A stretch of 59,797 nucleotides of DNA, counting the filler, from Malassezia furfur (Eukaryota), in NCBI GenBank assembly GCA_052055015.1. It is 8 parts of 8 records of this genome, joined end to end, with 100 filler letters (N's around TTAATTAATTAA, not from the genome) between each part and the next. Parts side by side here need not be neighbours in the genome. Positions count along the whole stretch, not along the records: positions 7,612 to 15,074 come from JBQJIT010000497.1; positions 15,175 to 22,622 come from JBQJIT010000498.1; positions 22,723 to 30,086 come from JBQJIT010000499.1; positions 30,187 to 37,534 come from JBQJIT010000500.1; positions 37,635 to 44,971 come from JBQJIT010000501.1; positions 45,072 to 52,401 come from JBQJIT010000502.1; positions 52,502 to 59,797 come from JBQJIT010000504.1; 1 more part is not named here. One strand, written 5' to 3'. Position numbers and translations under genes: made by a program. The notes below the pieces were generated by a model. The model did no database searches. It saw only the letters and a program-made list of their open reading frames with translations, and had not been told where the DNA came from. Of this stretch, positions 11,538 to 59,797 are shown in pieces; position 1 is the stretch's first letter; each line of letters starts with the position of its first letter.

Positions 11538-12711
11538 ATGAGCGAGCCGCCGGCGTACTTGGACCCGCGCGACCCGGCTGTGCACCTCGACCAGCACACC
11601 CAGCGCTATGTCTGGGAGGGTGACGAAAAGGAGTGGGAATGGCACGGGCGTCCGCCGATGGAGGAGGAGCGGCAGACGAGCGGACGCTGGATCGAAGTGA
11701 TCAGCCAGGAAGAAATCAACAAGCAACAAGAGGTTTACAGTGTCGCGGGTGTCGACGAGACGGTACGTATGCCTCAACACCCAACCTAGGTACCCGCTGC
11801 GCCCGTAATCAAGCGGCAACAGGGCAAGAAGCGCAAGGAGCCAGAGCCCGCGGCGCCCAAAAAGCCCCGGCCCAACACGGCGGTGTTTGTGTCGCAGCTG
11901 CCGCTCGACGCGGAGGCGAGCGAGATCGCCGAAGTGTTTTCCCGATACGGTGTGCTGCTGGAGGACGAGGAAGGGCAGCCACGGATCAAGCTCTACCACG
12001 ACAGCGAGACGGGCGCATTCAAGGGCGAGGCACTTGTGGTCTACTTCAAGCCCGAGAGCGTCGAGCTTGCGATCCAACTTTTGGACGATACCTACCTGCG
12101 TGCGAGCAAAGGCGTGTGCACCGGCTCGCGCATGCATGTCGAGCGTGCACACTTCCAGAGCGAGTCGGGCGCTGACGCCGCGGAAAAGAAGCCGCGCGAG
12201 CTGTCCGAGGCCGAGCGCAAGAGCCTCAAGAAGCGCATGAACAAGATGAACAGCAAGACGAACGACTGGGACTCGGACTCGGACACGGAGCGGCCCAAGA
12301 CTCAGGCGACGGCGCGCACGTTGATTCTCAAAAAGATGTTTACACTCGCCGAGCTGGATGAGGATGCGACGCTGCTGCTGGACCTGAAGCAGGACGTGCG
12401 CGAAGAATGCGAGTCGCTGGGCGAGGTGACCAACGTGGTCCTGTGGGACGTACGTAACTTGACTCACGCAGCGGGAGCCTGAGGGCGTAATTACGGTGCG
12501 TTTCCGCGACCCAGCCGCGGCACAGCGTGCGTATGCCAAGATGGATGGGCGGTACTTTGCCGGGCGTCAGATCGTTGCGTCGCTCACGGATGCGCGCCCC
12601 AAGTTCCGCAAGACGGCGCACGCGGACGACGAGGACATCGAGGACGACGAGCACCGGCGTGCTGATGCGTTTGGCGACTGGCTCGATGCACAGGGCGAGG
12701 GAGATAAATAG
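11538..12711 (+). CDS. CUS2: U2 snRNP-associated Cus2/Tat-SF1 (RRM + UHM); introns 11763-11789 and 12450-12471
   Basis: NTAVFVSQLP, 'IKLY..ETGAFKGEALVVYFKPESVELA', 'DVREECESLGEVTNV', 'MDGRYFAGR'. Removing the 27- and 22-nt GT..AG introns joins three ORF pieces. Confidence 0.9.
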
Positions 12712-12713
12712 GC

Positions 12714-14147
12714 CTACTTGACACGCGTAATAATTTGTTCGTTGAGCTGTGCGAGCGCGCCGCGAGCATCGCTTTGGGGCAGCACATGGAGCGCCTCTGC
12801 GGCGACCTGTGCGTGGTATCGGGCGAGCTCGGCGGTGCGGGCCAGGCCGTTGGAGCGATGCACAATTGCGAGTGCCTCTTGGACGTCGCCCGGCTCGGTG
12901 AAGCGGCGGTGCACCATCTCGCCCAGGCGGCTGTCCGGGAACTCTTGCCAGGCATACAGCACGGGTGCGGTGGCCAGGCCGAGCTGCAGGTCGGCGCCGC
13001 CCGACGGCTTGCCGAATGCCTCCGAAGTCGACTGGAAGTCGAGCAGGTCGTCGACCAGCTGGAACGCGATGCCGACGTTGCGGCCGTACTGGTACGCCGC
13101 ATCGCACACCTTGCGCGCCCCGTCGCGGTCCGCGCCCGTCAGGCGTGGTGCGCCGACGGGCGCCTCACCGCACCCGCCAAGCACCGTCGCGGAGCGCGCC
13201 GACTTGGCGATCAGAGAGGCGGTCTTCAAGTAGGTCTTTTGCAAGTAGTACGAGAACATCTCGCGCGTCGGCCCGCTCGGCGCCGTGCTGGGCGCCCAAA
13301 AGCGGTCCAGCACCTCGGCGCCCGGCTCGGACGACTGCAGGTCGGTCACGGGCACCGCGTCCGAGTCCTGGGCGCGCATCTGCATCACCTCGCCCTCGAC
13401 GAGGTTCGCAATGACGGTCGACATCAGCTCGACGACCTCCGGGTCGCGCAGGCGCGCGAGGGCAATCGAGGCGCGGCCGAGCAAAAAGTCGCCGCCGAGA
13501 ATGCTCAGCTTGTTGCCGAATGCGTTGGGCGCGGACGGTGCACCGCGCCGGAGTGGGGATGCGTCGATTACGTCGTCGTGCAGGAGCGATGCGACGTGGA
13601 TCATTTCGGTGATTTCGGCGAGGCGGCGCTGCGTGGGAAGCAGCACGTTTTGCAGCTGCGGCGTGTACGGCTCGGCGGGTCGCGGGAGAGGGTCGGACGG
13701 CGTGCGCCGTGCGCTCGGGTTGACGTCGTTCAGCACGCGTTCGGGGCTGATAGCCGTATCGGCGAACTCGCCGACCAACGAGGCGCGCTGCGCGGCCCAC
13801 GCCGGGCTGAGCCCGTTGGTGGCCTTGGCCATGAGCAGCACGATCATGGGGCGCACATGCTTGCCCTCTGCCTGGAAATAGTACTTGCCGACGCGGTCCA
13901 GGGACGGGTGGCCGCTGCCGAGGAGCGCGGCGATATTGTGCCGGAGCGACGACAGCTCGTCGCCGACGACCTCGAGCGGGTCGCGCAGGAGCGCCGACAC
14001 GGCGGCTTGGTCATCGGCACCGCTGCTGCCCGAGCCTGCGAGTGCCTCCTTGGCGCGGTCCACAACAGCGGACCATGACGAGGCGTGGCGCGGTGCACCG
14101 TAGCGGCACAGCGGCGCGGCCGCCGCCCGCTTCCACAAAAAGGCCAT
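12714..14147 (-). CDS. COQ1: Mitochondrial trans-prenyl diphosphate synthase (coenzyme Q side chain)
   Basis: GKHVRP, EMIHVASLLHDDVID, KTASL and FQLVDDLLDF motifs. Confidence 0.93.
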   Translation of the reverse strand: MAFLWKRAAAAPLCRYGAPRHASSWSAVVDRAKEALAGSGSSGADDQAAVSALLRDPLEVVGDELSSLRHNIAALLGSGHPSLDRVGKYYFQAEGKHVRPMIVLLMAKATNGLSPAWAAQRASLVGEFADTAISPERVLNDVNPSARRTPSDPLPRPAEPYTPQLQNVLLPTQRRLAEITEMIHVASLLHDDVIDASPLRRGAPSAPNAFGNKLSILGGDFLLGRASIALARLRDPEVVELMSTVIANLVEGEVMQMRAQDSDAVPVTDLQSSEPGAEVLDRFWAPSTAPSGPTREMFSYYLQKTYLKTASLIAKSARSATVLGGCGEAPVGAPRLTGADRDGARKVCDAAYQYGRNVGIAFQLVDDLLDFQSTSEAFGKPSGGADLQLGLATAPVLYAWQEFPDSRLGEMVHRRFTEPGDVQEALAIVHRSNGLARTAELARYHAQVAAEALHVLPQSDARGALAQLNEQIITRVK

Positions 14148-14192
14148 GGTGACGAACGGTGCGCCTTCTTCGCGGATTAGTCATCCATTCGC

Positions 14193-15074: not shown

Positions 15075-15174
15075 NNNNNNNNNNNNNNNNNNNNNNNNNN
15101 NNNNNNNNNNNNNNNNNNTTAATTAATTAANNNNNNNNNNNNNNNNNNNNNNNNNNNNNNNNNNNNNNNNNNNN
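15075..15174. other. Artificial contig linker
   Basis: N44-TTAATTAATTAA-N44. Confidence 0.98.
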
Positions 15175-15361: not shown

Positions 15362-15363
15362 CG

Positions 15364-16677
15364 CTACGTAGTGTACAGGGGCGGCTCCTCTGGCGTGCGC
15401 GTGTGCCACAGCTCGTATTTGCACGCCATCGCGAGCAGCATCACGGCCGGCAGATGCACGAGGCTCAGCCGGAAGCACGCGCGGGCGGTCGCTTCGCTCG
15501 GGCGCCGGAAGAACTGGTAAGAGGCGTAGGCCAGCGCGACGTTCGGCACGAGCGACAGCACGCCGTACGCCACGGGCTCCACCGTCTGCGTCAGCGGGAG
15601 TGCCAGCGAGCACAGCGGGATGAGCAGCAGCGCGTAGCGCAGCGCGACGCGCCGGTTCAGCGTGGGGTTCGTCACCGCCATCATGCGGTAGCCGCCACGC
15701 GCGTACTCGTTACCGGTGACGTGCGACAGCGCGTTAAAGTGGGGGAACTGCCATGCGAACAGGATGCCCGCGAGCACCCACCCGGCCGCGTCGGTGACGT
15801 GGTCGAGCGTGCCCGTGCACGACGCCCAGCCCATGAGCGGGGGCAGCGCTCCGACGAGCGCGCCGACCCACGTATTCGCGATGCTCACGCGCTTCATCGG
15901 CGTGTAGATGAACGAGTAGAGCACAATGTTAGCCGCGCCGAGGGCCGCCGTCAGCGGGTTAACAAGCGTGCCGAGGATCGCAACGCCGGACACGGCGCTG
16001 ACGGCTGCCATGCCAAAGGCGTGCGCGGGCGCAATGGCGCGGCGCGGCAGCGGGCGCGCCTTGGTGCGTGCCATCTGCGCGTCGTACGGTGCTTCGATGA
16101 TCTGGTTGAGCGCGTTGGCACTCGTGGAGCACAGCGTCATGCCGCCGGCCAGCGCCAAGAGCCGCACGACGGGCGGCAGCGCCGACGGCACGACGTACGC
16201 CGCGGGGCACAGTGCATACCCCATCATGCCAGACAGTACCACCAGGAACGTGAGGCGCGACTTGGCCAGCTGCCGGTACACGCGGAAGGTGCGCGCGAGC
16301 GTCGGCGGCTTCTGCGGCACAAACCCCGCGGGCGGCTGCGCAACCAGCGCCGAGGGCACCGGGTCGTCGCGCACCACCTCAACACACAGCGGGTCATCCG
16401 TCGCGGGGCGGTACTTGTGCGCGACGTGCTCGGCGGCCTCGGCGATATGCGTGCCCGTCTGCGGCGCCGGCACCGGCGTGAAGAAGAGGGGGCCGGGCGG
16501 ACGTGCCATGCGCTCCGTGCGCCCGACCTCGCGCACGCAGCGGGTTGAGCTTAGCGCACGCATCTGCGACGCACATCCGTCTACGGGGTATCTCGGCGCC
16601 CACTGCGCGCGCACACACGCACGCAGCACGCGCACACTCGCCGGCGCCCGCGCGCCGGTCCCACTGCACCACGCCAT
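15364..16677 (-). CDS. COX10: Protoheme IX farnesyltransferase (heme O synthase)
   Basis: LAKSRLT, SANALNQIIEAPYDAQMARTKARPL, YTPMKR..NTWVGALVGALPPLMG, WQFPHFNAL. Confidence 0.95.
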   Translation of the reverse strand: MAWCSGTGARAPASVRVLRACVRAQWAPRYPVDGCASQMRALSSTRCVREVGRTERMARPPGPLFFTPVPAPQTGTHIAEAAEHVAHKYRPATDDPLCVEVVRDDPVPSALVAQPPAGFVPQKPPTLARTFRVYRQLAKSRLTFLVVLSGMMGYALCPAAYVVPSALPPVVRLLALAGGMTLCSTSANALNQIIEAPYDAQMARTKARPLPRRAIAPAHAFGMAAVSAVSGVAILGTLVNPLTAALGAANIVLYSFIYTPMKRVSIANTWVGALVGALPPLMGWASCTGTLDHVTDAAGWVLAGILFAWQFPHFNALSHVTGNEYARGGYRMMAVTNPTLNRRVALRYALLLIPLCSLALPLTQTVEPVAYGVLSLVPNVALAYASYQFFRRPSEATARACFRLSLVHLPAVMLLAMACKYELWHTRTPEEPPLYTT

Positions 16678-16687: not shown

Positions 16688-16695
16688 ATCACGTG
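16688..16695. promoter_or_regulatory. ATCACGTG E-box overlapping the upstream gene's stop codon, just 5' of COX10
   Basis: RTCACGTG match about 10 bp from the COX10 ATG. Confidence 0.35.
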
Positions 16696-18011
16696 CGCGA
16701 ACGCCGGCCCTGGAGCCAGGCCCACTCGTCGGCCGTCGCCGTGGACCGTGCGGTGCGTCGCGCGCCGTGTGCGCCCAGCGCCGCGTCGGACACGCGCACG
16801 GCCGCGTGCAGCTTGCTACCACGGACGCGCGCCTGATGAGCGGCATGCTCCGCGACGCGCAACGCACGCCGCGCGCCGTCCCACGGCTGCTGCGCGCCGC
16901 CCGCAACCGCTGCGTGCGTGTCGAGCGCCTCGGCGTACGTCTGTGCATTGTGCGCAACCTCGTCGTCCGTAGCAAGGTGCAACTTCGGCGTCTGTGCAAG
17001 GAGGCGCGCCCACTGCCGGCGCTGCGCGCGCAGCCGGCGTGAATAGTCGGTACGCGCCTGTTTCCACGGGCCGGTGCGCTGGGCACGGGGCAAGCGCGAC
17101 ACGGGCGCGGTGGTACCGACCGCTTCGGCAAGGGCGCGCGCGCGGGCCAAGAACCGGGGCGACGTTGCCGGCATGCCTTCGCTCATGGGCGCGGGCGCTG
17201 TCGGTGCGCTGGTTTCAGCACTGATCGCCCCCTCGCGCACTTGCACACGGCGCGGCACGGTGGTGCCACGCGGTTGCGCCTTGGCCTCGAGCGCATACAT
17301 TGTGTCCATCCCGATGTCCTGTGTGCCCACTTGCACGCCAAGCGGTAGCCATAGTCGCGACATGTGTTCAGTCACGTACCGCCAATGCGCATTCGCGACG
17401 CGCCGGCGCGGCACCGTTTTGCCGGGGATCCGCGCCGCCGAGTCGTAGGCAATGCGCAGCTTGGGCGGGCACTGCAGCGTGCTCTCCTTGGCCGGTGCGC
17501 CGCGCTGGGCATGGGTGGAAAGCAGTAGCGCACGAAGGACCGGCGGAAGGTATGGCAAACGCTGCCGTGGCATGTACTGCGCCTCTTCCCCTACGGCCGG
17601 CGAGGGGTGCGGCGGCGCTAGGAGCTGGGTCAGTGGGTGACGTACATTCAGAAGCGCACGCCGCGGTTTGCCGCGTCGCGCGTAGGCCTGCTCGAGCGCG
17701 CGTGCGACGGCATGGGGCCACCCCAGGTTCGCATTCGCGAGCTGTCGTATGCGTGCGCAGCTCTGACGGTGCCGGCGCTCGGCGCTCGTGCGCCGTGCAT
17801 CCGCGTCGTCGGACGTCGACGCGCCCGAGCGCTGTGCGTCACGCACAAACTCGATGGACGTGCGCGCGAGCGCTGTATGTGCTGCATACATATGTGGATC
17901 GCGCCATTCGTAGGCGAGCAGCCGCGCCTGCTCGCGCCACGCGCGGTACAGGCGCGGCAGCGGCAGCGCACGAAGGCCGCCCACGCTCAGCGGCGCGCTC
18001 CCAGCGTGCAT
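16689..18011 (-). CDS. Hypothetical protein with LYR-like N-terminus (probably mitochondrial)
   Basis: 'LYRAWREQARLL' and 'RQLANANLG..RALEQAYARRGKPR' resemble fungal LYR-motif proteins; very basic. Confidence 0.55.
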   Translation of the reverse strand: MHAGSAPLSVGGLRALPLPRLYRAWREQARLLAYEWRDPHMYAAHTALARTSIEFVRDAQRSGASTSDDADARRTSAERRHRQSCARIRQLANANLGWPHAVARALEQAYARRGKPRRALLNVRHPLTQLLAPPHPSPAVGEEAQYMPRQRLPYLPPVLRALLLSTHAQRGAPAKESTLQCPPKLRIAYDSAARIPGKTVPRRRVANAHWRYVTEHMSRLWLPLGVQVGTQDIGMDTMYALEAKAQPRGTTVPRRVQVREGAISAETSAPTAPAPMSEGMPATSPRFLARARALAEAVGTTAPVSRLPRAQRTGPWKQARTDYSRRLRAQRRQWARLLAQTPKLHLATDDEVAHNAQTYAEALDTHAAVAGGAQQPWDGARRALRVAEHAAHQARVRGSKLHAAVRVSDAALGAHGARRTARSTATADEWAWLQGRRSRT

Positions 18012-18074
18012 GTGGAGGCAAGGCACACGGCAGCCTACTGGGCACAGTCACGCACTACGGGCTCGTCGCGGCGT

Positions 18075-18912
18075 CTATGCATGGTCGGCGTCGAGCGCAG
18101 GGTCGTCCCACGACACAAACGTACCGTTGCCAAGCGGCTCGCCGTCCTTCTTGGGCTCGGTGCGCGAGCCACGCAGCGCAAGCGCGGCCAGTACACTGGC
18201 GGGCTTGTCGGCCGGGAGCAGCTTGCCCTCCTTGTGCAGGTCGAGGAACTTGGCGTGCTCCTTTTGGTTCATCGTGTTGGAGCCGCGGATCTGCGTCTGC
18301 ATGTCCGTGTCCACCACACCAGGGCGCACCGAGAACGAGGCAATGTCGGGCTCCTCGTTCGCGAGCGTGCGCGCAATCGAGTTCATGGCCGCTTTCGAGG
18401 CGCTGGGTCAGTCGCGCAACGTACTTGTACGGGGCCCAGGATGCATAGTTGCCGACCGCTGCGCCGCTGCTCACAAACACGACGCGCCCATGGCTCTTGC
18501 GCAGCGACGGCAGCGCCGCGCGGATCGTGGTGACGAGCGACACCGTGTTGACGTTCAGCGTATTCAGCAGCATTTCGGGCGACTGCGTCAGGGTGGCACG
18601 TACCAGGTTTTCGATGCGCGCAAATTCGGCAATGCCCGCATTCAGAATCAGAGCATCCAGACGCTTCCAGCGCTGCAGCGCCTCTTCGACCGCACGCTTG
18701 TTGTCGTCCAGCTCGGTGACGTTGCCCTTGACGACGGCGAGGGCGTCGGGGAAGTCTTGCTGGAGCTGCTGCAGTTCTTTCGGCTCGGAGCGCGAGAGCG
18801 TCACGACATTCGAAGCAGGCGTCTTTTCCGTTCCCTTCAGAAGAAGCTTGAGCACGGCGAGGCCAAGGCCGCGGCTTGCGCCGGTCAGGAGCACCACTTG
18901 CTTGTCTGCCAT
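18075..18912 (-). CDS. Short-chain dehydrogenase/reductase (IRC24/YIR035C-like); introns 18583-18603 and 18403-18424
   Basis: TGASRGLG, LNAGI, VSSGAA. Splicing restores catalytic YNASK and PGVVDTDMQ. Confidence 0.9.
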
Positions 18913-19123: not shown

Positions 19124-19941
19124 TTACTCATGGTACTCCTTAAGCGCGGGGTCGTCCCACGAGACAAAGGCGCCCGCTCCAAGCGGCTCACCGTCCTTGG
19201 TGGGCTGCGCACGCGAGCCTCGCGCGGCCAAAACAGCGAGCACAGCGGCAGGCTTCTCGGGGGGGAGCAGCTTGTCCTCCTCGTAGAGCTTTTCAAACGT
19301 TTCGTCTGTGGTGCGAATCTTGCCCTGCATCGCCGTATCGACGTGGCCGGGGCTCACGGCGAACGACGCCACGTCTGGTTCCTCGTTGGCGAGCGTACGA
19401 GCAAGGGAGTTGAGAGCAGCTTTGGAGCAACTGAGTCAGTGGCGTCACACACCTATACGGAGCCCAGGTAGGGTGGCACAGGTACGACGAGCTGCTTGTC
19501 ACAAACACCGCACGCCCTTTGTGCTTGCGCAGCTCTGGGAGCGCCGCACGCAGAGTATTGACGGGTGCGGCCGCATTCACTGCGAGCGTCTTGAGCATGG
19601 TGTCAAAGTCCTGCGTCAGTGCGGCCACGCACCAGCTCCTTCAACGGCGCCAGCTTCGTAATGCCGGCATTCAACACAAGCCCATCGAGCCGCTGCCAGC
19701 GCGAGACGATATCGTCCACGGCCTTTTGACTGTCCTCGTACTTGGTCACGTCGCCTGTCGCGTAGGCGAGCCGACCTTGATACTGGGACTGCAGCTCCTT
19801 GAACTCGTCAGAAACGGCCATGGTCAGCGTATAGACATTGGCCGGTGGCGTCCGCTGCGTGCCTTGGAGCAGTTTCTTGACGACGGCAAGGCCGAGGCCC
19901 ATGCCGCCACCGGTAACGAGCACACTAGGAGTGGGGGACAT
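19124..19941 (-). CDS. Short-chain dehydrogenase/reductase, tandem paralog; introns 19611-19632 and 19431-19452
   Basis: TGGGMGLG, LNAGI. Splicing restores YSCSK and PGHVDTAMQ. Intron positions match the neighbouring SDR. Confidence 0.88.
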
Positions 19942-22206: not shown

Positions 22207-22622
22207 CTACGGTAGAGACGTATGCCGCGCCGTGTTCAGTCGGTACACCACGCCCTGGGTCAGTGGGGCACGTACGTTTTGCGATACGCGCACGACATGG
22301 TTCGCGGCAAGCAAAGCAATGAGCGCCTTGTTCACCTTGCCGGCAGGCAGGGCGGGGGCATGCGCCACGTCCGCCACTGGGTCAGTACTCGACGTACCGC
22401 GCACGCCTTGGTCGCCCGCCGAGAGCAGCGCAAGGATCACGCCGTGGAGCAGGCGCCGCTGGCCCGCATCGCCATTGCGGTACTCGAGCGGCATGGTATC
22501 AATAATGTCGTCGGCAAACGCCTCGCGCCGGCGCTTGACGGCAAGGGGAATGCGCTTCGGCGCGCGGGCGTCGGCCGTCGAGGCGCCCAGACGCCGGTCG
22601 GTCGAGGCCGCCGGCCGGCCCG
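22207..22622 (-). CDS. C-terminal fragment, probably the basidiomycete-type DASH complex subunit Dam1; introns 22377-22397 and 22255-22275
   Basis: Spliced product IIDTMPLEYRNGD..RRLLHGVI..LPAGKVNKALIALL..GVVYRL matches my recollection of the basidiomycete Dam1 C-terminal extension (not verified). Confidence 0.5.
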
Positions 22623-22722
22623 NNNNNNNNNNNNNNNNNNNNNNNNNNNNNNNNNNNNNNNNNNNNTTAATTAATTAANNNNNNNNNNNNNNNNNNNNNN
22701 NNNNNNNNNNNNNNNNNNNNNN
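22623..22722. other. Artificial contig linker
   Basis: N44-TTAATTAATTAA-N44. Confidence 0.98.
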
Positions 22723-25700
22723 GTGCTGCTTTTGGGCGGCATGGGCTTTGCCTGCCTTGCGCTCGTCCGCGGCGGTGGTGCCGCGCGCCTCGGCGATGGC
22801 GTCGAACAGGCCCGCCTCGAGGGCCATGCCGTAAAAGATGGACTGGTCGTTGCTGAGCAGCGCCTTGGGGGTGTCGAACTCGGCCACGCAGCCGTTTTGC
22901 ATCACCAGTACGCGGTCCGAGTCCAGCACGGTGTTGAGGCGGTGGGCGATGGTGATGGTGGTGCCGTGGAACTCGGAGCGGACGAGCTGCTGGACGAGGT
23001 TGTCCGTCTCGAGGTCGACGCTGCTCGTCGCCTCGTCGAGCACGAGGATTTTGGTGCGGCGCACAAGCGCGCGTGCGATGCACACGAGCTGGCGCTGGCC
23101 CGCCGAGAGGTTCGTCCCGCTCTCGGCGACGAGCTGGTCGAGGCCCGCGGGGTCCTGCTCGACGAGCGAGGCGAGGTGCGCCTGCTGGAGCACACGCAGG
23201 ATCTCTTCGTCGGAGTACTGGTGGAGCGGGTCGAGGTTGTCGCGCAGCGTGCCCTGCCAGAGCTGAGCGTCCTGCGGGATGATGGCGAGCGCGTCGCGCA
23301 GCTCGTGCAGGCCGAGCGTCGCAATGTCCACGCCGTCGATCACAATCTTGCCGTGGACCGCCTCGAGGATGCGGAAGAGCGCGAGGGTGAGCGTCGACTT
23401 GCCCGCGCCGGTGCGTCCCACGACGCCGACGCGCTCGGCGGGCCGCAGCTCGAACGACAGGTCGTGGAGCACGAGCGGGTGGCCGGGGCGGTAGCGCGTG
23501 GCGTACTGCTCAAACGCGATGGCGCCCTGGCTCGGCCACGCGGCGTCTGGGCCATTGGGGAGGAGGAAGGGCGCCTCCTGCGGCAGCTCGGAGTAGTCGA
23601 TCACGCGCTCGACGCTGACGATGTTCTGCTCGACCTCGGACGCGGAGCGCACGGCCCAGTTGAGCGTCTGGGTGGTGGAGAGCACCTGGGAGAGCATCAG
23701 GCCGAGCAGGCCGGCCGAGATGGCGCCGCTCGTCGTCACCATAAACACCGCGGCGGTGCTCGCGAAGAAGATGACCGAGGAGCCGAGCATCTCGATGCGC
23801 ACCGCGAGCCAGCGGTTGCAGGTGATGGCCGGGAAGTAGCACATCTGGTTGCGGTCGACGCGCGCCTCGAAGGCGTCCGTGAAGCTTGCCGTCTTTTCGT
23901 AGGCGCGGATGGTGGTCAGGCCGCCGAGCGACTCCTGGAACCAGGTGAAGAGCGGCGACTTGGACACGGCGTCGATGCGCTTCAGCTCGCGGCTGGACGC
24001 GAGGTAGTAGCGCATCACCGCGCGGTACAGCAGGCCGAGCGGGATCACAAACAGCAGGAACGACGGCACGCTGTACGACACGATGCAGATCACGCTCAGC
24101 ACCACCATGAACGAGCGCACAAAGCCCTGAATGACGCGCGGGAGGGTCTCGTCGATGACGCTCACGTCGCGGCTGAACAGGTTGAGCAGGCGCCCGGTCG
24201 GCGTCGTCTCGAACCACTGCAAGGGGTAGCGCATCACGGCGAGGAACAGGTTGTCGTGGAAGCGGCGTGCGCTCGCGAGCACGAGCCAGACGTACAGGAT
24301 GAACGGCGCCATGCAGAACCCGACCGAGGAGAGCAGGCCGACGCCCGCGTACAGCGTGAGGTAGAAGCGGGCGAGCCCTGCCTGGTCCTCGGGCGGGTGC
24401 GTCTCGTTGGCGGCGCTCCACTGCTTGAGCACGACGTCGCGCGACAGGCTGAACACCTGCGTGAGGACGTGCGCCGCAAAGAAGAGCGCGACGCCGACGA
24501 CGCCCGCGCTCTGGATGTACTGGCGGTACACGGCCCACTTGACGTTGCCCTGCTCCTGCTTCTCCTTGGGGTTCGTCGACTCGCGCAGCTGGCGGATGGT
24601 GTCCACCTTGACCTCGTCCTTGGCGAGCGCGCGCGGGCGCACGAGCGCGTGCTTCGACGCGCGGCGCTGCGCANNNNNNNNNNNNNNNNNNNNNNNNNNN
24701 NNNNNNNNNNNNNNNNNNNNNNNNNNNNNNNNNNNNNNNNNNNNNNNNNNNNNNNNNNNNNNNNNNNNNNNNNGCGAGATGATCTTGTCGCACTCCGACA
24801 GATAGGACACGGCGTTCAGCGTGAGGATCAGGCGGTACACCTCGCCGCGCTGCTGCATCACCTCGTCGTACGTGCCCTGCTCGGCGAGGAGCGCGCCGCT
24901 GCGCAGCGAGATGATCTTGTCGCACTCCGACAGATAGGACACGGCGTTCAGCGTGAGGATGCGCGTGCGTCCGTCGAGCAGGCCGCCCGGACCAATCACG
25001 TGCTTCCACAGGTGCGCGCCGACGTGTGCGTCGACGGCCGCGAGGGGGTCGTCGAGCAGGTAGATGTCGGCGCTCGCGTAGCATGCGCGCGCGAGGGCGA
25101 CGCGCGCGCGCTGCCCGCCGCTGAGGCTCACGCCGCGCTCGCCGATCTCGGTGCGGTCGCCGTCGTTGAACAGGGCCAGGTCGGGCTTCAGCGCGCACGC
25201 AAACAGGCACCGCTCGTAGTGCGCCGCGTCAAACTCGCGGCCGAACAGGATGTTGTCGCGGATGCTCGCGCCCATGCACCAGCCGCCCTGCGAGAAGTAG
25301 GCGGTCTCGCCGTGCACCACGACGGAGCCCTGGCGCACCACCATCTCGCCCAGCACCGCCTGGAGCAGCGACGATTTGCCGTCGCCGACGCGGCCCAGCA
25401 CGCCCACGAGCTCGCCGGGGCGCAGCGCGAGGTTGATGTCGCGCAGCACGGTCGGCTGCGACTCGGACCAGGCGAACGAGGCGTTGCGCAGCTCGATCGT
25501 GTGCTCCGGCGGGGGCGTCTCGGCGCGCGGCCGCTCGGCGTCGTCCGGGAGCGGCACGACCGTCCGGGCGTGCGGGTCGAGCTCGTCGGCGTCGAAGAAG
25601 GACGCGAGGCGGTCGGCGGACACCTGCGTCTGCAGGAACATGCTGACGACGCCCGCGAGCATCGACAGCGGGAAGTTGAGCAGCTGGTACAGCGACAGCG

Positions 25701-27561
25701 CCGGGAACACAATGTCGGCGGTCAGCGGGCGGTCGCTGGTGAGCGAGAAGGCGACAAACGTGCCGAGCGACACGAAGAACGGGATCGCCTGCCAGAAGAA
25801 GTTGAAGCCCGCCGAGGCCATGCCGACGCGCTTGAGCAGCGGCAGCTCTTCGCCGTCGCGCACGTCGAGCAGGCGCGTGGTGAAGGCCTGCTCCCACGCA
25901 AAGAGCTTGATCGACTTGATGTTGAGGATGATCTCGTTCATGATGCGCGTGCGGCGGTCCTTGACCTTCATCATCTTGGCGCTCAGCTTGCGCAGGTAGG
26001 TCGCGAGCACCGTGTTCATCGGCAGCGACACCACCATGATGCCGACGCCCACAAACGCCGACCACCCGAGCAGGTTGTACAGCGAGAAGAAGGCGATCGT
26101 GATCTGGAACACGGCGGACCACAGGATGTGTGCGTACATCACAAAGTCGGGCAGGCGGTTCGCGTCGACGCTCATCAGGTTCACAATGTCGCCCGTGGCG
26201 CGCTGCGCCCGCGCCTCGCTCGAGAGGCGCAGCGACTTGCGGAAGATGGCGCTGACGACGCCCGCGCGCGCGCGCATCCCCGCGACGCTCACGAGCTGGA
26301 AGTACTGGTGCAAACACATGGTCTGCACCACCGCCGTGAAGAAGAGCAAAAAGGCCAGCACGTAGCCACGCAGCGCCGGTCCGCGGGCGTCGGCGTCGTC
26401 GGTCGACTCCCAGTTCTGCACAAAGGCGAGCAGCGCGCGCAGGAGCTGCGGCTGCGTGAACGCGAGCACGTCCTGGAACACCTTGTACACGGCCGCGACC
26501 ATAAACAGCCGGCCGTACGCGCCCAGCAGCGTCGTCCAGAAGCGCGTGCGCCGCGTCTCGGGCAGCGGGCGGCCGGCGAGGGCCACGCGCTCCGTCTTGG
26601 CGTCCCAGATGTGCTGGAACGCGTCGCCGAGCGCCTCGGTGTCCTCGCCGCGGGGCAGCGCCCACATGTCCGCCTCGGTGAGGAAGCGGCGCGCGCCGAG
26701 CGACATCATGGGCTGCATCCACTGGAAGGTGAGCCGCGAGAACAGGTTTGCCGTCTCGACGGGCGACTCGGCGGGCGCATACAGCGGGTCGGGGTGCAGC
26801 GCGTCGGGCGGCGGCACCTCCTGGTCGTCGTTGAGCGCGAGCAGCCCGTCGTCGTCGCCGTCGGGCAGGGCAATCGCGCCCACTTCGCTGTCGATCGGCT
26901 GCGACTCGAGGAAGAGCACGACGACGACGAGCAGCAGGCGCATGCACAGCGGCACGACGAGCAGCAGCTGGATCGCCGACGCCCACGGTGCGAGCTGCGT
27001 GAGCGTGCGCAGGCGCACGGGCGCGGCCACGAGCTGCGTCAGCCAGAGAAGCAAGGCGACGTCGCTCCCGTGCCGGATGCGCAGGTGGTTGGCGTGCTGC
27101 AGGAGCAGCGCGCACACGTACGCGAAGCACACGACGAGCCCCGCGACGATCTGCATGCCGCTCGTCAGCGCGGCGGCCTCGCCCGTGGCGTGCCGGCGCA
27201 GCACGGCCAGGACGGCGACTTCGGCGGCGCCGAGCAGGGCGATGATCGTCGTGATGCCGTCCTTTTCGTGGAGGAGGTGCAGCGACGTCTCGCTGCGCTC
27301 CTGCACGGGCAGGTGGGTGAGGTGCTTCAGCGAAACGAAGGCGAGCACGAGGAAGGCAAGCGCGGGCACGCACCAGAGCATCACTGCCTGGAAGCACGGC
27401 GTGAGGTCAAAGGCGCGTGTCGGCGACATCGGCCCCCATCCCTCGGTGGCGTCGCACAGCCAGGTGCCGCACACGCGCACCTTGGGCGCGTGCGCCCACA
27501 CGGCGAGGCGCCCGGCGCGCAGCAGCGGCTCGTCGAACGACCACCACGACCCGAACTCCAT
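22723..27561 (-). CDS. YCF1: ABCC/MRP-family transporter (Ycf1-like), with internal assembly gap; stop lost at contig end
   Basis: TMD0, two TMDs, Walker A GRVGDGKS and GRTGAGKS, signatures LSGGQ and LSAGQ, LLDDPL and LDEATS. Confidence 0.88.
24674..24773. other. Scaffold gap (100 N) inside the ABC gene
   Basis: N run without the linker 12-mer. Confidence 0.97.
24774..24960. repeat. Exact 55-bp direct repeat (24774-24828 and 24906-24960) at the gap edge
   Basis: ILTLNAVSYLSECDKIIS appears twice in the translation; likely assembly artefact. Confidence 0.85.
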
Positions 27562-30086: not shown

Positions 30087-30186
30087 NNNNNNNNNNNNNN
30101 NNNNNNNNNNNNNNNNNNNNNNNNNNNNNNTTAATTAATTAANNNNNNNNNNNNNNNNNNNNNNNNNNNNNNNNNNNNNNNNNNNN
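30087..30186. other. Artificial contig linker
   Basis: N44-TTAATTAATTAA-N44. Confidence 0.98.
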
Positions 30187-35377: not shown

Positions 35378-35387
35378 TACAGTGCAT

Positions 35388-35987: not shown

Positions 35988-35996
35988 CGTGGTCGA

Positions 35997-36020: not shown

Positions 36021-36061
36021 GGATTGGTCAGCGTGGAGGTGCGCGAAGGTTTGCCACCAGC

Positions 36062-44971: not shown

Positions 44972-45071
44972 NNNNNNNNNNNNNNNNNNNNNNNNNNNNN
45001 NNNNNNNNNNNNNNNTTAATTAATTAANNNNNNNNNNNNNNNNNNNNNNNNNNNNNNNNNNNNNNNNNNNN
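44972..45071. other. Artificial contig linker
   Basis: N44-TTAATTAATTAA-N44. Confidence 0.98.
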
Positions 45072-50389: not shown

Positions 50390-50810
50390 ATGTCCGAGTC
50401 TCAAGTGAACCCCAAGGCCTTCCCGCTCGCAGATGCGGCGCTGACGAACCAGATTCTGGACCTCGTGCAGCAGTCGTCGCACTACAAGCAGCTCAAGAAG
50501 GGTGCGAACGAGGCGACCAAGACGCTCAACCGCGGCATCTGCGAGTTCATCGTGATGACCGCCGACGTCGAGCCGATTGAGATCGTGCTGCACCTCCCGC
50601 TGCTTTGCGAGGACAAGAACGTGCCCTACGTCTTTGTCCCGTCGAAGATCGCGCTCGGCCGTGCGTGCGGTGTGTCGCGCCCCGTCGTGGCGTGCAGCAT
50701 CACCACCAACGAGAACCGCGAGCTGCAGAGCCAGATCCAGACCATCAAGCTGGCGGTATGTTGGCGCGAGAAGTGTGTGCTAACGACAGATCGAGCGCCT
50801 GCTCATCTAA
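50390..50810 (+). CDS. SNU13: Snu13/15.5K kink-turn binding protein; intron 50756-50789
   Basis: [41 protein letters not shown]; splicing gives the terminal IERLLI*. Confidence 0.96.
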
Positions 50811-52401: not shown

Positions 52402-52501
52402 NNNNNNNNNNNNNNNNNNNNNNNNNNNNNNNNNNNNNNNNNNNNTTAATTAATTAANNNNNNNNNNNNNNNNNNNNNNNNNNNNNNNNNNNNNNNNNNN
52501 N
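52402..52501. other. Artificial contig linker
   Basis: N44-TTAATTAATTAA-N44. Confidence 0.98.
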
Positions 52502-53958
52502 GGTGGTTGAAGAACTGCTGCAGCTTCTCGTTGGTGTAGTTGATGCACAGCTGCTCAAACGAGTTCGTCTCGAAGATCTCAAAGCCCGCAATGTCCAGCA
52601 CACCAATGAAGCGCGACTTGCTCGTCGGGCGGTCCAGCACGTGGTTGATGCGGTCGACGAGCCACCCAAACGTCTTTTCGTACATCGTCTTGCACAGCGC
52701 CGCAATCTCGTCGGTGACCTGCTTCTTGTTGCGCGCCTGCGTCACCATCTCCCGCCCGGCGCGCACCGTCGGACGCACCAGCGCACTCTGCAGCTTGCCG
52801 GGCTCCACACCAAGCACCTCGCCTACGATCGCCAGCTGCTCGGCGTTGGTGATGCGCGCCTGCTCGGAGCGGTCCTCGGCAAGCTCGAGGTTGCCGAGCT
52901 GCAGGATGCCGGCGACGACGCGGAACAAGTCCTCCTCCTCGTGCGCCCGGAAACCCATCGTTTGCAGCGCCGTACGCAGCTGCACCCACTCGTGCGTATC
53001 GTCGACGCCCTCGACGTCCTTGCGTGAGGCGCGCAGGAATTGGTAATGGTCGGGGTGGTTCGACAGCTGGAAGCGGTCGAGCAGCGCCTTGTCGCGGCTG
53101 CGCAGCAGCTGGTAAAAGACATGGAAGTTGCGCTCGTTTGCGCTGCGGCTGTGCACACGGCTCTTTTCCAGCAGGTACCACTCGATGTTGCCGCCGGCGA
53201 TCGCGCCGTGCGCCGTGAACTCGATGCGCACAAACTTGCCGAACCGACTCGAGTTGTTGTTGCGCACGGTCTGTGCATTGCCGAACGCCTCGAGGATCGG
53301 GTTCGCCTGCAGAATCTGGCGCTCGAGCAAACCCAGCGGCTCGTGCGAAAGGCGGCGGTGGTGCAGCAGCTCGGGATCGACGTCCGCGTCCGCATCCACG
53401 GCAACCGCGGTCAGGTACTGGATGACACGCTTCGTGTTCTCCGTCTTGCCCGCACCCGACTCGCCCGTGATGAGCAAGCTCTGGTTCTCTTGTGCGTGGA
53501 TCATGTTTTGGATCGCGCCGTCGGCCACGGCGAAGATGTGCGGCGGGTTCGCCTCGCGCCGCATCCCGCGGTACTGCTCAATAATGGCCTCGGTGTAGAT
53601 CGGCAGCGCATGGTACGGGTTCACCGCGACCAAGAAGAGGCCCGAGTAGGTCTGCGTGAGCGGAGCGGCGACGTACATAGATCAGGTCGCTAAAGTAGCG
53701 CTGCCGCAGGTTGTGCACCACGGATGCCTCGTTTAGGAAAGTCAGGTCTGCAATGTCGGCCACTTTGTCGAACTTGGCGGGGTTCATCGCGCTCAGCGTG
53801 CTCGTCGGCACGGTGCGCACTTGGCCGTTGGGCAGACACACCACGCTGTCGGTGCCGTCCTCGGACACGACGTATGCGGCGACGTAGCCCTGCGTCGCAT
53901 CCGGCACCCACACGTCCTTCCGTGCCGCATCTGCTTTTTCAACCGCGCTCGACACCAT
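52502..53958 (-). CDS. MYO1: Class II myosin heavy chain, N-terminal motor part (3'-truncated); intron 53652-53676
   Basis: VWVPD, MNPAKFDK..LTFLNEASV, spliced IYTYSGLF, GESGAGKTENTKRVIQY, NNNSSRFGK, LDIAGFEIF. Confidence 0.92.
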
Positions 53959-54091: not shown

Positions 54092-54840
54092 ATGCCACTG
54101 CATCTCGCGCACCACAAGAGCTACCGTACGTGTGCCATACCCCTCACTCAGACCCGTACAACCGGGAGAATATCGAACGTGTGCGCCGAGATGAGGCAGA
54201 GGCGCGCGAGCGTGAGCGCGCGGACGAAGCGCGCCTCGCGGACGCCGATCGCCAGGAACGCCTGCATACGCTGCGTGCCCAGCGCGACGCACGCGAGGCG
54301 GGCGACGCTGCAGCGCCAAAGCGCGACGTGCAGATCACTACACGCGAGGGGCACATCAATTTCTGGCAAGACTACGAGCTAGGGCGAACGCAGCCGGCTG
54401 ACGATGCGCCGACCACCTCCGACGCGCGGCCCGCAACGACGCGGCGGCCGACCGTCGAGCTGAACCCGTGGTACGCAAACGCAGAGTTGCGCAACGGGCG
54501 CGAACAGCAAAAGAACGAGGACGAGGTGCTCGAGGACTGCTACCGCGACACGGCGCTCAAGTCGCGGCACGACCCGCTGCGGTCCATCCAGGCGCACTTG
54601 GACGAGCGCGAGGCGTCGTCGCGCGCGCTACCCGTGCGTGCGCCTGGCTCGCCGCGCACCACACATACCCTGGCCAGTGAGCGCTCCGAGCGCGAATCCA
54701 AAGAGCGCGCGCGCGCTGCCGAGCTCCAAGCGAAACGGGCGGCCGACCCCTTTTTTCGCGCCTCGGCTCGTGCCGCGCGTGAGGCACGAGCCGGACGATA
54801 CGCACGCAAGCGCGCACGCGCCCATCGAGCCCACGAGTGA
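54092..54840 (+). CDS. Cir_N-domain protein (LENG1/Cwc25-related); intron 54126-54151
   Basis: Spliced MPLHLAHHKSYHPYNRENIERVRRDE; GHINFW; PWY; HDPL. Confidence 0.75.
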
Positions 54841-57056: not shown

Positions 57057-57770
57057 CTACTGGACCACGAGTTTGGGCGGCTCGGCTCGGTACAAGTCGA
57101 GTGGAATGTCGCCGATGTAATGCTCGTCGCCAAAGCCGCCCACATAGTAGATGCGTGTCGGTGCGAACCGCGCCCACTTGGCCAAGTGGGGGCTGTATGG
57201 AGATCCCGGTGCCCAAGCGGCCGCATCAGGGTGATAGTGCCGGAAACACGCCGCGAGGTCGTCACTCGCCGCGTGCTTGCTGGGCACCACCGTCATGGTG
57301 CCATGCATATTCACGCGTGCCTTGGACGGCATGCCCTTGCGCCACATGGGCCGCTCGGACGGCCACCGCAGGCGGCCAGCGGGCGACGTGACGCTGTGCC
57401 GCACGTCCACCACGCTCGGGTCCGCGTTCGAGTGGATCAGCACCGAGGCCGTGGCATTAGGCGCCAACGCGTTACGCCAGTTCTCCGACACGGGCAGCGC
57501 AAGAAACAGCAGATCGCCCTCGCGCGCACCATCCACCTGGTCAATGAGCGACGCGTTGAAGCATGGCGCATAGTACTCGGCGCCGATCACCACCTCGCCG
57601 TCGCGCGAGACGCTCCCCAGCGAGGCCACGTAGAAGGTCGTATCGTCCACCAACAGCCTGCGCAGATCCTTGGCGGCTGGATTAGCATGCCACGTACCTG
57701 TCTCTGCGTGTTCCCATGCACACACACCCATGCACAGCAGCAGTGCGCCTACCGCGCCGACCCACCGCAT
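57057..57770 (-). CDS. Secreted CREG-like / pyridoxamine-oxidase split-barrel protein; intron 57677-57697
   Basis: Signal peptide, EYYAPC, RVNMHG, CFRHYHPDAAAW.PG, IYYVGGFGDEHYIG.I. Confidence 0.75.
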   Translation of the reverse strand: MRWVGAVGALLLCMGVCAWEHAETGTWHANPAAKDLRRLLVDDTTFYVASLGSVSRDGEVVIGAEYYAPCFNASLIDQVDGAREGDLLFLALPVSENWRNALAPNATASVLIHSNADPSVVDVRHSVTSPAGRLRWPSERPMWRKGMPSKARVNMHGTMTVVPSKHAASDDLAACFRHYHPDAAAWAPGSPYSPHLAKWARFAPTRIYYVGGFGDEHYIGDIPLDLYRAEPPKLVVQ

Positions 57771-57838
57771 CGTGGTTCCCCACATCGTGCGATCAGGCCA
57801 TCAGCATCGGGCGATCGGGTGGAGGTCGTGTTGACGCC

Positions 57839-59134
57839 ATGGCGAAACGCGCGCGCACGGACGAAGCGACGCGCGACGCGTCGCCGTCGCTGCCGGACCC
57901 GCAGGCGCCCGCGCCCAATATTGCGCCAGAGCTTGGATTTACGGCACAGGACCTGATTCAGCAGCAGGAGCAGCTCGAAGCAGACGCAAACGCCGCCTAC
58001 CCCTTCCAGATCGACACATGCACCCATGCCCTCGGGCCCATCCGCCAGCCGGTGTATGCGTGCCGGACGTGCGGCGGCGGTGGCGTGTGTGCGGCATGCA
58101 GCGTCATGTGCCATGGTGAGCACGAGCTCGTCGAGCTGTTCCACAAGCGCGACTTCCAGTGCGACTGCGGTACGCCGTCGCTGTACCGCGAACGCACCGA
58201 CCTGACCGATACCGACCGGCCGCGCGACGCACAGCCCTGTGCGCTGCGCAAGCATGAGCCCAACAAGGGCTGGGATGAGCCGAACCACAACAAGTATACC
58301 CACAATTTCCAGGGGCATTTCTGTATCTGCGAGCGCGGCAAGTCGTACGACCCCCAGACCGAGGAAGAGACCATGTACCAGTGCCTTGTATGCGAAGAGT
58401 GGTACCATGAGTCGTGCACATCGCTGGGCACGCGCCGCATCCTCTCGGCAGATGTGTTTGAGCACCTCGTGTGCGACGCTTGTGTCCAGCATCCCGATGC
58501 GCGCTTGCTGCGTACCTACGCCGGGACACGGCACTGGATGCTGCTAGCGCCAGGGGGGCCGGCTGCGTGGGACGGCGTTACGGCCGAAGTGCACGGCGAT
58601 TGGAAGCTGTACGGCTGCGCAGGCGCCGCGTCGACGGCCCCGGAGGCGGCGCCCACATCCGAAGCGGCTCCTGCAGTGCCGCCCGCCTCGGACGCGACAC
58701 CGCTCGGGAAGCGCGCGCGTGCGTCCTGTACGTCGCCGACCGAGATCCACCCCAGTGTGCTGCAGGCTGAAGCACGTACCGACGTCTTCCTTGACGCTTC
58801 GTTCCGGCAGCGGCTGTGCGACTGTGCGGACTGCGAAGCTGCGTGGCGCGCTCAGTACCCCTACGTCTACGAGGAGGAGACGACGTATGAGCCGCCGACC
58901 GAGATGGATGATGCGGCGTCGACGACGAGCTCGACGTACGACCGCGCCGTCGCGGCGCTGGGACAGCTGCCGCGGGTGCAGATGCTCGAGTCGCTGCGGG
59001 CGTACGAGCAGCTGCGCAATGCGCTGTATGAGCACCTGCGCCCCTACGCAGAGCGGCACGAGCCTGTGGACGAAGAGGCAGTCCGCGCCTTCTTCCGGGA
59101 ACATGAGGCACGGCGTAGTCAGTCCAAAAGCTAG
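57839..59134 (+). CDS. UBR7: UBR7/Mlo2-like E3 ligase (UBR box + PHD)
   Basis: RQPVYACRTC..CAACSVMCHGEHELVELFHKRDFQCDCG, YTHNFQGHFCIC, MYQCLVCEEWYHESC. Confidence 0.92.
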   Translation: MAKRARTDEATRDASPSLPDPQAPAPNIAPELGFTAQDLIQQQEQLEADANAAYPFQIDTCTHALGPIRQPVYACRTCGGGGVCAACSVMCHGEHELVELFHKRDFQCDCGTPSLYRERTDLTDTDRPRDAQPCALRKHEPNKGWDEPNHNKYTHNFQGHFCICERGKSYDPQTEEETMYQCLVCEEWYHESCTSLGTRRILSADVFEHLVCDACVQHPDARLLRTYAGTRHWMLLAPGGPAAWDGVTAEVHGDWKLYGCAGAASTAPEAAPTSEAAPAVPPASDATPLGKRARASCTSPTEIHPSVLQAEARTDVFLDASFRQRLCDCADCEAAWRAQYPYVYEEETTYEPPTEMDDAASTTSSTYDRAVAALGQLPRVQMLESLRAYEQLRNALYEHLRPYAERHEPVDEEAVRAFFREHEARRSQSKS

Positions 59135-59797
59135 TCTATGAGGTATTTGCGCTTGAAGAAGCCACGCAGGTGGTATACCTGCCACACGCCGAGGACCGTC
59201 ACGGCGAGCAGCGAGAACCACGCAAAGCCGTGCACGCGGCGGAGCGTCGAGTCTGGGTCAGGGGTGCGCACGTACCGTTGGTCGAGCTGAGGCGCTGCTC
59301 GCGCGATTTGAGGTACTCCATCTCGTCGAGGATCTCATCGGCCGTCGTCGCCAGCTTGCGGAGTTCCGTCTCCATGCCCGAGAGCGACTCTTGGTTCGCG
59401 ATGGCGTTGTAGTCGATAGCGTCGCCGCCGAGGTGCACGTCGAGGTCGATGTCGGACACGAGATGGTCGCCTGGGTGAGTGAGGAGCGACGTACGTTTCC
59501 CGCGGTTCAGAATGCACACACCGAGGTCGGCGTCATGGTGTGTGTTAATCGCGAGGCGCGTCTCATCGGTGAGCCCCTTTTTGCTGAGGTACACGTTGTG
59601 GTGCGTGCGGTCCACGACCTTCACCTCGATGCTCTGGTCGGCGGCGGTGCGCGCGTCGCGCGGCACGACGTTGATCGAGATGATGGCGAGCGTGTCTTCC
59701 AGTGCATAGTTCCAGATGCACAGCGGCGTCGGGTTCTTGGACGCGTGCAGCTCAAACTTGATGGCCGCGGCCCCTGCCGCGAGGCTCAGCAGCCACG
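59131..59797 (-). CDS. ERV25: p24 family cargo receptor (Erv25-like), 5' end outside the window; introns 59471-59494 and 59253-59275
   Basis: GOLD domain, DVHLGGDAIDYNAIANQESLS..E, EMEYLKSRE..TN, TM helix, WQVYHLRGFFKRKYLID*. Confidence 0.9.

Follow-up and report, generated by a model that had tools for sequence, protein, structure and literature searches.

Short introns are an established feature of the genus Malassezia. The curated annotation of M. sympodialis contains 5350 introns with a mean length of 30 bp, 99% of which are supported by RNA-seq (PMC5389616), and the introns of M. restricta have a median length of 30 and an average of 37.2 (PMC9241646, Table 1), the annotation of the latter species having allowed introns down to 20 and 15 (PMC6473144). 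A review of the genus also refers to "very short introns" (PMC7426719). Here we describe a set of 28 predicted introns in a stretch of Malassezia furfur DNA of 59,797 bases (65.5% G+C; assembly GCA_052055015.1), hereafter referred to as the window. These share their genus, a compact, gene-dense genome and the GT-AG class with the introns of M. sympodialis and M. restricta, but their median of 22.5 nucleotides (nt) and mode of 21 nt lie below the mean and median of 30 published for those species. An earlier note on this DNA had remarked that Malassezia introns are known to be short, which agrees with the published figures (PMC5389616, PMC9241646), and the window presents a more extreme case of a known kind, not a new category. 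Our literature search found no paper giving a motif, a 5-nt branch-to-3′ spacing, a 21-nt mode or a length floor for Malassezia; in the supplement to PMC5389616 the lengths are plotted as an image from which values cannot be read.

Introns of less than 30 bp have been recorded elsewhere in ciliates, Microsporidia and Dicyemida, and those of myxozoans have a median length of 22 bp, according to a paper from 2026 that deals with the shortest introns of animals (PMC13644364). The list of exceptions below 30 bp given in that paper does not include Malassezia, and the short introns of Microsporidia are reported there to be inefficiently spliced. Extreme intron shortening in a reduced genome is common to the window and to Microsporidia, Dicyemida, myxozoans and nucleomorphs, although all of the latter are parasites or the remnants of endosymbionts. 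Chlorarachniophyte nucleomorph introns are 18-21 nt in length. The ~25-nt introns of Paramecium and Nyctotherus (PMC8997360, PMC5014332) belong to the same length class as those of the window, but these organisms are ciliates with AT-rich introns, whereas the window introns are not defined by their composition.

The features of the 28 segments argue for ordinary spliceosomal introns of the U2 type (GT-AG), pared down in this Malassezia to little more than their signals, an interpretation that we consider very probably correct. The 27 segments listed in the earlier note all run from GT to AG on the coding strand of a gene and have the lengths attributed to them; with the addition of one that was absent from that list (17625-17645, minus strand, 21 nt), a GT 5′ end and an AG 3′ end are present on the coding strand in 28 of 28. 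The shared consensus that had been proposed is also borne out, and takes the form of a 5′ GTRYGT followed by a fused branch/3′ block, CT-V-A-C-S-CAG. GTACGT makes up the 5′ hexamer in 21 introns, GTGCGT in three, GTATGT in two, and GTGTGT and GTACGC in one each; G is invariant at +5, T occupies +6 in 27 of 28, and the site carries ~11 bits. A branch-like YTNAY motif is found in 27 of the 28 (CTGAC 15, CTCAC 8, CTAAC 2, TTAAC 1, CTAAT 1), the terminal triplet is CAG in 26 and TAG in two, and the 3′ block as a whole (C-T-V-A-C-S-C-A-G) carries ~10 bits. Of these 27 introns, 21 have 5 nt from the branch-like A to the 3′ end and six have 6-8 nt. Positions 7-12 hold almost no information (~0.03-0.28 bits each), and the introns, at 61% G+C against 65.5% in the window, show no compositional contrast with the exons. 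A polypyrimidine tract of the metazoan type is absent between the branch and the 3′ site, where there is no room for one, the branch A and the terminal AG being separated by only 4 bases in 21 of 27; such a tract is not a defining feature in fungi.

This pattern is far more frequent than expected by chance. When both strands were scanned with a strict pattern (GTACGT, 3-22 bases, CT[AGC]AC, 1-8 bases, YAG), 18 matches were obtained, whereas 300 dinucleotide-preserving shuffles averaged 0.16 and never exceeded two, and a relaxed pattern gave 41 matches compared with 10.6 from shuffles. All 18 strict matches are located on coding strands; 17 had been listed in the earlier note, and the eighteenth is the segment at 17625-17645. 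It could be supposed that the segments are not removed at all, and represent either small insertions of coding sequence, if their length is divisible by three, or sequencing or assembly indels, if the frame is shifted. We regard this as extremely improbable, as indels would not bear GTACGT...CTGAC-N-CAG 18 times against an expectation of 0.16, and further evidence bearing on it is given below.

Nine of the introns are 21 nt long, five are 22, four 23, one 24, four 25, two 26, two 27 and one 34 (range 21-34, mean 23.4), so that the typical length falls within the ~30 nt or less that is characteristic of Malassezia. In 10 of 27 introns the branch-like A occupies position 16, and in none does it lie further towards the 5′ end. 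All nine 21-nt introns combine a branch A at 16 with a 5-nt tail, and hence show both minima together, while in all five of those 22 nt long the A falls at 17, followed by the same tail. The minimum of 21 therefore arises as the sum of two separate limits, namely a branch A at position 16 or beyond and a 3′ end 5 bases further on. The earlier observation that no intron is shorter than 21 nt is true of the window, where shorter matches to the pattern occur only nested within the listed introns. The hard floor proposed in the earlier note is plausible and partly supported, with nine introns at exactly 21 nt and none below among the 28 of a single window.

Gene models were derived from codon-position G+C and Pfam matches; a plain list of open reading frames (ORFs) was swamped by the spurious frames typical of G+C-rich DNA. 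For comparison we used four syntenic loci of other, lower-G+C Malassezia (L001-L004; 50-58% G+C) from a metagenome scan, and database proteins that are designated by P-numbers (P0001 etc.) in the homologue alignments. The introns, the genes that bear them and the evidence that places each are as follows.

11763-11789, plus strand, 27 nt (GTACGT...TAG): Tat-SF1/CUS2-like gene, intron 1; least certain of the set, placed by motif and frame.
12450-12471, plus strand, 22 nt: Tat-SF1/CUS2-like gene, intron 2; strict motif and alignment to human Tat-SF1.
17625-17645, minus strand, 21 nt: LYRM2-like gene, probable intron; strict motif, the frame being uninformative for a stop-less multiple of three.
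18403-18424, minus strand, 22 nt: short-chain dehydrogenase B, intron 2; adh_short positions 149 and 151 on either side, the split codon being 150.
18583-18603, minus strand, 21 nt: short-chain dehydrogenase B, intron 1; adh_short positions 96 and 97 abut by extrapolation.
19431-19452, minus strand, 22 nt: short-chain dehydrogenase C (paralogue of B), intron 2; adh_short positions 149 and 151 on either side of a split codon.
19611-19632, minus strand, 22 nt: short-chain dehydrogenase C, intron 1; exon 1 ends at adh_short 96 and exon 2 residue 5 is 101.
22255-22275, minus strand, 21 nt: DAM1 (DASH complex), C-terminal part; P0001 and P0002 lack exactly its 7 residues.
22377-22397, minus strand, 21 nt: DAM1; P0001-P0003 lack exactly its 7 residues.
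30886-30908, minus strand, 23 nt: two-RRM protein, splitting the RNP1 motif; comparison with related loci.
31906-31926, minus strand, 21 nt: kinesin, intron 3; orthologues and L001-L004 continuous.
32992-33013, minus strand, 22 nt: kinesin, intron 2; orthologues and L001-L003 continuous.
33425-33445, minus strand, 21 nt: kinesin, intron 1, at the start of the motor domain; orthologues lack its 7 residues, L001-L003 continuous.
34064-34086, plus strand, 23 nt: Xaa-Pro aminopeptidase, intron 1; AMP_N positions 31 and 34 on either side, with a split codon.
34161-34181, plus strand, 21 nt: Xaa-Pro aminopeptidase, intron 2; exon 2 ends at AMP_N 57 and exon 3 residue 6 falls at 63.
35470-35495, minus strand, 26 nt: IMP3, intron 2; yeast Imp3 structure, L001-L003 continuous.
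35922-35946, minus strand, 25 nt: IMP3, intron 1; L002 continuous with one lysine codon, Ribosomal_S4 starting at 14 in exon 2.
36083-36105, plus strand, 23 nt: NAR1, intron 1, seven codons past the start codon; orthologue alignment.
36199-36219, plus strand, 21 nt: NAR1, intron 2, in a variable linker; strict motif, partial outside support.
37745-37769, plus strand, 25 nt (GTATGT...CTCAC...CAG): PHD-finger gene; motif and frame.
40366-40392, plus strand, 27 nt (GTGCGT...CTGAC-G-CAG): Sos7-like kinetochore gene, intron 1; motif and frame, with an in-frame stop on retention.
40583-40607, plus strand, 25 nt: Sos7-like gene, intron 2; Sos7 profile position 1 at exon 3 residue 1, frame restored, partial support.
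50756-50789, plus strand, 34 nt: SNU13, six codons before the stop; human 15.5K structure.
53652-53676, minus strand, 25 nt: myosin; Myosin_head positions 29 and 30 across the junction.
54126-54151, plus strand, 26 nt: gene with a Cir_N-like N-terminus, near the start; frame restored, partial support.
57677-57697, minus strand, 21 nt: CREG-like gene, after the signal-peptide region; 13 of 13 aligned homologues lack its 7 residues.
59253-59275, minus strand, 23 nt: p24/GOLD cargo receptor, intron 2; EMP24_GP25L positions 148 and 150 on either side of a split codon.
59471-59494, minus strand, 24 nt: p24/GOLD cargo receptor, intron 1; EMP24_GP25L abutment to within one position.

At each junction the flanking exons were searched separately, and their abutment was judged on Pfam profiles, solved structures, orthologues and intron-less related DNA. 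The earlier note had held that removal of most of the segments restores frames or conserved motifs; long open frames are indeed joined at every site, and outside references agree with the junction at 21 of the 28. Outside support is partial at three (36199, 40583 and 54126), and motif and frame are the evidence at four (11763, 17625, 37745 and 40366). Solved structures were used for three of the genes. Exon 2 of the Tat-SF1-like gene ends at residue 308 of human Tat-SF1 and exon 3 begins at residue 309; exons 2 and 3 of IMP3 correspond to residues 17-156 and 158-182 of yeast Imp3, with the split codon supplying residue 157; and the first 120 of the 122 residues in SNU13 exon 1 align with residues 1-120 of human 15.5K, whose total of 128 residues is reached when the 6-residue exon 2 is added. 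Where profile matches stop short of the exon ends the spacing is nevertheless consistent: in dehydrogenase B, residue 108 of the 110 in exon 1 falls at adh_short 94 and residue 7 of exon 2 at 103, and in the p24/GOLD gene residue 98 of the 100 in exon 1 falls at EMP24_GP25L 82 and residue 6 of exon 2 at 90.

Other junctions are less tightly constrained. The segment at 37745 joins an open frame of 36 codons, cut by a run of Ns, to one of 496 codons in which the PHD domain begins at exon 2 residue 6. At 54126 position 4 of Cir_N falls on exon 2 residue 1, in a weak match (E 0.044) below the curated cut-off. In the LYRM2-like gene the profile ends at its last position (85 of 85) on residue 133 of the 134-residue exon upstream of 17625-17645. 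The whole ORF (16692-18047, minus strand; third-position G+C 0.78) continues past this domain and the 21-nt segment as an open frame of 311 codons, and this extension has no Pfam match; LYRM2-family proteins are usually short.

Orthologue comparisons bear directly on the possibility that the segments are retained. Across each of the three kinesin junctions the spliced product is collinear with its orthologues, which range from Malassezia as far as Agaricomycetes and Phycomyces. At 31906 the 7 residues are missing from 15 of 15 orthologues, a count that leaves out the ORF calls of close relatives, two of which (94% and 81% identical) have a 7-residue insert of the form V-R-x-x-L-T-Q at this point. 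At 36083 the NAR1 junction agrees with 11 annotated orthologues, which extend from Malassezia to the Agaricomycetes; of the relatives' ORF calls, two run on through an in-frame intron at this position and a third begins inside one. The second NAR1 junction, at 36199, is not fixed by alignment, and the linker varies in length among homologues; here V-R-x-P-L-T-Q is kept in the ORF calls of two close relatives while the flanking residues vary. Retention would thus have to be reconciled with orthologues, both within the genus and beyond it, that lack exactly the encoded residues, and with related genomes that are continuous and carry the exact predicted codon at 30886, 34064, 35922 and the three kinesin sites. 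It would also disrupt conserved domains at 16 of the 28 sites.

The lengths themselves are divided in what they say about retention. Sixteen of the 28 are not multiples of three, and therefore retention would shift the frame. The other 12 are multiples of three, and two of these meet an in-frame stop if retained, whereas ten do not (17625-17645, 18583-18603, 22255-22275, 22377-22397, 31906-31926, 33425-33445, 34161-34181, 36199-36219, 57677-57697 and 59471-59494). Retention of these ten would insert 7-8 residues in frame without truncation, which together with the read-through of such segments by ORF callers (P0004-P0006, P0274 and P0275) is what favours the view that they are coding. In phase 0 the stop-less introns are translated as V-R-x-x-L-T-Q. 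In the read-through ORF calls of close relatives the residues specified by the splice signals (V-R...L-T-Q) are kept and those in the middle and on the flanks change, the signature being seen in P0005, P0006, P0274 and P0275. Paramecium has a deficit of stop-less introns with lengths divisible by three; no such depletion is seen in the window (10 of 28).

A second alternative is that the introns are real but that some use other, more distant splice sites. This is very unlikely, and would apply to a few sites at most. The clearest candidate is 11763-11789, in which CCAAC stands at the usual spacing in place of YTNAY and an in-frame AAG, 24 nt beyond the 3′ end as listed, would make an intron of 51 nt (11763-11813, plus strand). 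As listed, the segment contains an in-frame stop, and its removal connects an open frame of 92 codons with one of 230. A comparison of exon 1 with solved structures in the PDB gave matches at chance level only, leaving this junction unconfirmed. Alternative GTs are also nested within the segments at 22377, 35470, 40583, 54126 and 59253. However, those at 35470 and 40583 break the frame and that at 22377 adds residues that are absent from homologues, and the boundaries listed above abut to within one residue of outside references at 21 of the 28 junctions.

Several observations weigh against interpreting all 28 segments as compressed spliceosomal introns. Four (11763, 17625, 37745 and 40366) are placed by motif and frame only, and outside support is only partial at 36199, 40583 and 54126; the first of the four, moreover, is the one without a branch consensus and with an in-frame alternative 3′ site at 51 nt. 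Ten are stop-less multiples of three, and at 17625 and 36199 retention likewise leaves an open frame. Finally, the NCBI model of M. yamatoensis NAR1 (P0276) takes the segment equivalent to 36199 as coding.

Comparison with the syntenic Malassezia loci revealed that intron positions are partly shared and partly private to the window, which keeps introns that are absent from the lower-G+C loci. At the three shared positions lengths differ: the RRM gene intron at 30886 is 23 nt in the window compared with 29 nt in L004 and 40 nt in L003; IMP3 intron 1 at 35922 is 25 nt compared with 23 nt in L001 and 39 nt in L003; and NAR1 intron 1 at 36083 is 23 nt compared with 25 nt in L001 and 29 nt in L003. 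Other loci have no intron at these positions (L001 and L002 for the RRM gene, L002 for IMP3 intron 1 and for NAR1 intron 1), and intron-less loci carry exactly the single codon predicted at the junction, for example one glycine codon in the RRM gene. Seven introns of the window are missing in the related loci, namely all three in the kinesin gene, both in the aminopeptidase gene, the second of IMP3 and, as far as its variable linker permits, the second of NAR1. In the aminopeptidase gene L001-L003 are continuous at 34064, with one phenylalanine codon at the junction, and L002 and L003 are continuous at 34161, where the length agrees to within one codon.

Such a distribution could be explained if a stereotyped mini-element, resembling an introner, had recently been gained many times in this lineage, since this would account both for the likeness of the introns and for their absence in relatives. 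In its favour, of the 11 junctions in the block from the RRM gene to NAR1, just three (30886, 35922 and 36083) have an intron at the identical codon in the three or four related loci and seven have none there, 36199 being left out of the score on account of its variable linker, and aminopeptidase introns occur at differing nearby codons between species. Nevertheless, it is unlikely. The similarity beyond splice signals that is expected of introners was not found, the likeness of the introns being limited to those signals with positions 7-12 close to uninformative; nor are the positions as a whole private to the lineage, three being common within the genus with differing lengths and sequences. 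Two kinesin positions that have no intron in the L loci are shared with ~30 loci of distant basidiomycetes. In these a motor-domain exon starts immediately after AG at the same codon as the 33425 junction, and the motor exon ends at GTAAG or GTGAG, five codons past a conserved block, which corresponds to the 32992 junction. This occurrence in distant basidiomycetes shows the kinesin introns to be old ones that shrank rather than new insertions. The overall picture is one of ancestral introns kept and shortened in this lineage and lost in other Malassezia, not of recent gain.

The aminopeptidase gene presents a more complex picture, with introns at different nearby codons across Malassezia. The window has two (34064-34181; 23 and 21 nt) and L002 none. 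L001 has a 23-nt intron at 7242-7264, 10 codons further on, and probably another of ~25 nt (~7133-7160), while L003 has a 145-nt intron (8599-8743) at the position of the 23-nt intron in L001. This arrangement is best read as intron sliding or turnover within ~40 codons.

A number of further candidates were considered and rejected. The segment at 26995-27018 (minus strand, 24 nt), in the ABC transporter gene, combines a weak 5′ site (GTGCGC) with a perfect CTCAC-G-CAG and was treated as coding; it serves as a negative control, as the Pfam TMD0 match scores 71.9 bits with the segment and 65.2 bits without it (the PDB alignment did not reach the segment). This probable coding case suggests that the 3′ block by itself does not make an intron. 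Relaxed matches at 1968, 10957, 13702/13709 and 56819 are antisense to genes, and those at 34793 (peptidase domain) and 36330 (NAR1) lie within conserved coding sequence; all were judged to be chance occurrences. In L001 a 20-nt candidate at 16111-16130 was not accepted, as its removal joins no long open frames and without splicing the frame stays open, nor was its 39-nt variant, which would delete 13 in-frame residues. Longer introns were sought with the main 5′ hexamers on both strands, and among the matches listed none had a branch motif and AG that fitted a gene model, untranslated regions not being judgeable in this way. Rfam, at gathering thresholds, gave no matches in the window or in L001-L004.

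The dimensions of the introns suggest how they might be recognised. A 21-nt intron consists of a 6-nt 5′ site, approximately five free bases and the fused branch/3′ block with its A 5 nt from the end, so that ~15 of the 21 bases are signal, with ~21 bits in total. The removal of the segments from RNA, the adenosine that forms the branch and the factors that recognise the sites are inferred. The 5′ site would be read through positions +1 to +6, U2 would pair with CTVAC, and the first AG past the branch point would be taken as the 3′ site; the intron would thereby be defined across itself, by its ~21 bits and a tight length window. The floor may be geometric: of the 16 nt in the loop, only four would be left free by the 5′ hexamer together with the five bases of the branch helix that precede the A. 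In the earlier note the spliceosome was envisaged as adapted to introns in which U1 and U2 lack the space to bind side by side. With 15 nt from the 5′ site to the branch A, the U1 and U2 small nuclear ribonucleoproteins would have no room to lie next to each other as they do in the early complexes known so far, in which case recognition would be sequential or remodelled. We therefore advance, as a tentative proposal whose correctness is doubtful, that splicing here is complete and signal-rich at a hard geometric minimum (a 16-nt lariat loop and a 5-nt tail), and proceeds either by sequential recognition or with a remodelled set of U1, SF1, U2AF and SF3b that reads CTVAC-S-CAG as one element.

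The 15-16-nt introns of the ciliate Stentor coeruleus provide a useful comparison, as they too are signal-compressed, with a fixed branch A and a 5-nt 3′ tail (PMC9505925), the distance found in 21 of 27 introns of the window. In contrast, the loop in Stentor is 10-11 nt, the branch consensus is weak and the introns are ~76% A+U (PMC9505925), whereas the introns of the window have a loop of 16 nt or more, a strong branch motif (CTGAC/CTCAC) and 61% G+C.

The genomic context of these introns is that of a compact, gene-dense Malassezia genome. The best named protein matches are all to Malassezia (for kinesin M. psittaci at 66% and M. yamatoensis at 64%; for NAR1 M. yamatoensis at 69%), and the closest database proteins overall, found in the kinesin and NAR1 searches, are 94-95% identical. 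Genes are packed extremely closely: the aminopeptidase and IMP3 genes converge with 10 nt between their stop codons (35375-35390), and IMP3 and NAR1 diverge with 74 nt between their start codons (35985-36064). The window is interrupted by runs of Ns at 7512-7611, 15075-15174, 22623-22722, 24674-24773, 30087-30186, 37535-37634, 44972-45071 and 52402-52501, which recur approximately every 7.5 kb as 44 and 44 Ns around 12 bases, with the addition of one run of 100. These break into the DAM1, ABC transporter, NAR1, PHD and RasGEF genes and therefore hide some gene ends and possibly introns. A single open frame of 2303 codons on the minus strand, at 601-7509, contains six DUF3712 stretches and a LEA_2 match, and a motif scan found no frame-compatible intron-like motif on its strand.

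Introns of this size have consequences for annotation. Gene finders and read mappers operating with default minimum-intron settings miss them, and ORF callers read through them; at the intron sites, database proteins of close relatives bear an extra 7 residues, V-R-x-x-L-T-Q. Mis-splicing is apparent in two NCBI models, those of M. equina DAM1, which has large gaps at the intron locations, and M. yamatoensis NAR1. The public proteins with suspect annotation are P0003, P0276, P0007, P0008, P0014, P0015, P0061 and P0072. Several Malassezia orthologues of the kinesin are named "succinate--hydroxymethylglutarate CoA-transferase" by NCBI despite their kinesin motor domains.

The introns described here are near the smallest that any spliceosome is known to remove, and in this lineage the very short introns of the genus are taken to a sharp lower limit. 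Since old basidiomycete positions have been retained in shortened form here and lost in other Malassezia, intron loss and miniaturisation can be compared within one genus. A culturable fungus may be a cleaner system than ciliates for establishing what sets the size of the smallest intron, given G+C-rich introns of 21-27 nt in which signal takes up ~15 bases of every 21 and the branch lies at a fixed 5 nt from the 3′ site. Should the proposed geometric minimum prove correct, the equality of this 5-nt tail with that of Stentor would point to a universal lower limit at the second catalytic step, and Malassezia, for which transformation and CRISPR/Cas9 have been reported (PMC5654937; bioRxiv 10.1101/638429), would provide a fungal model for the splicing of minimal introns.

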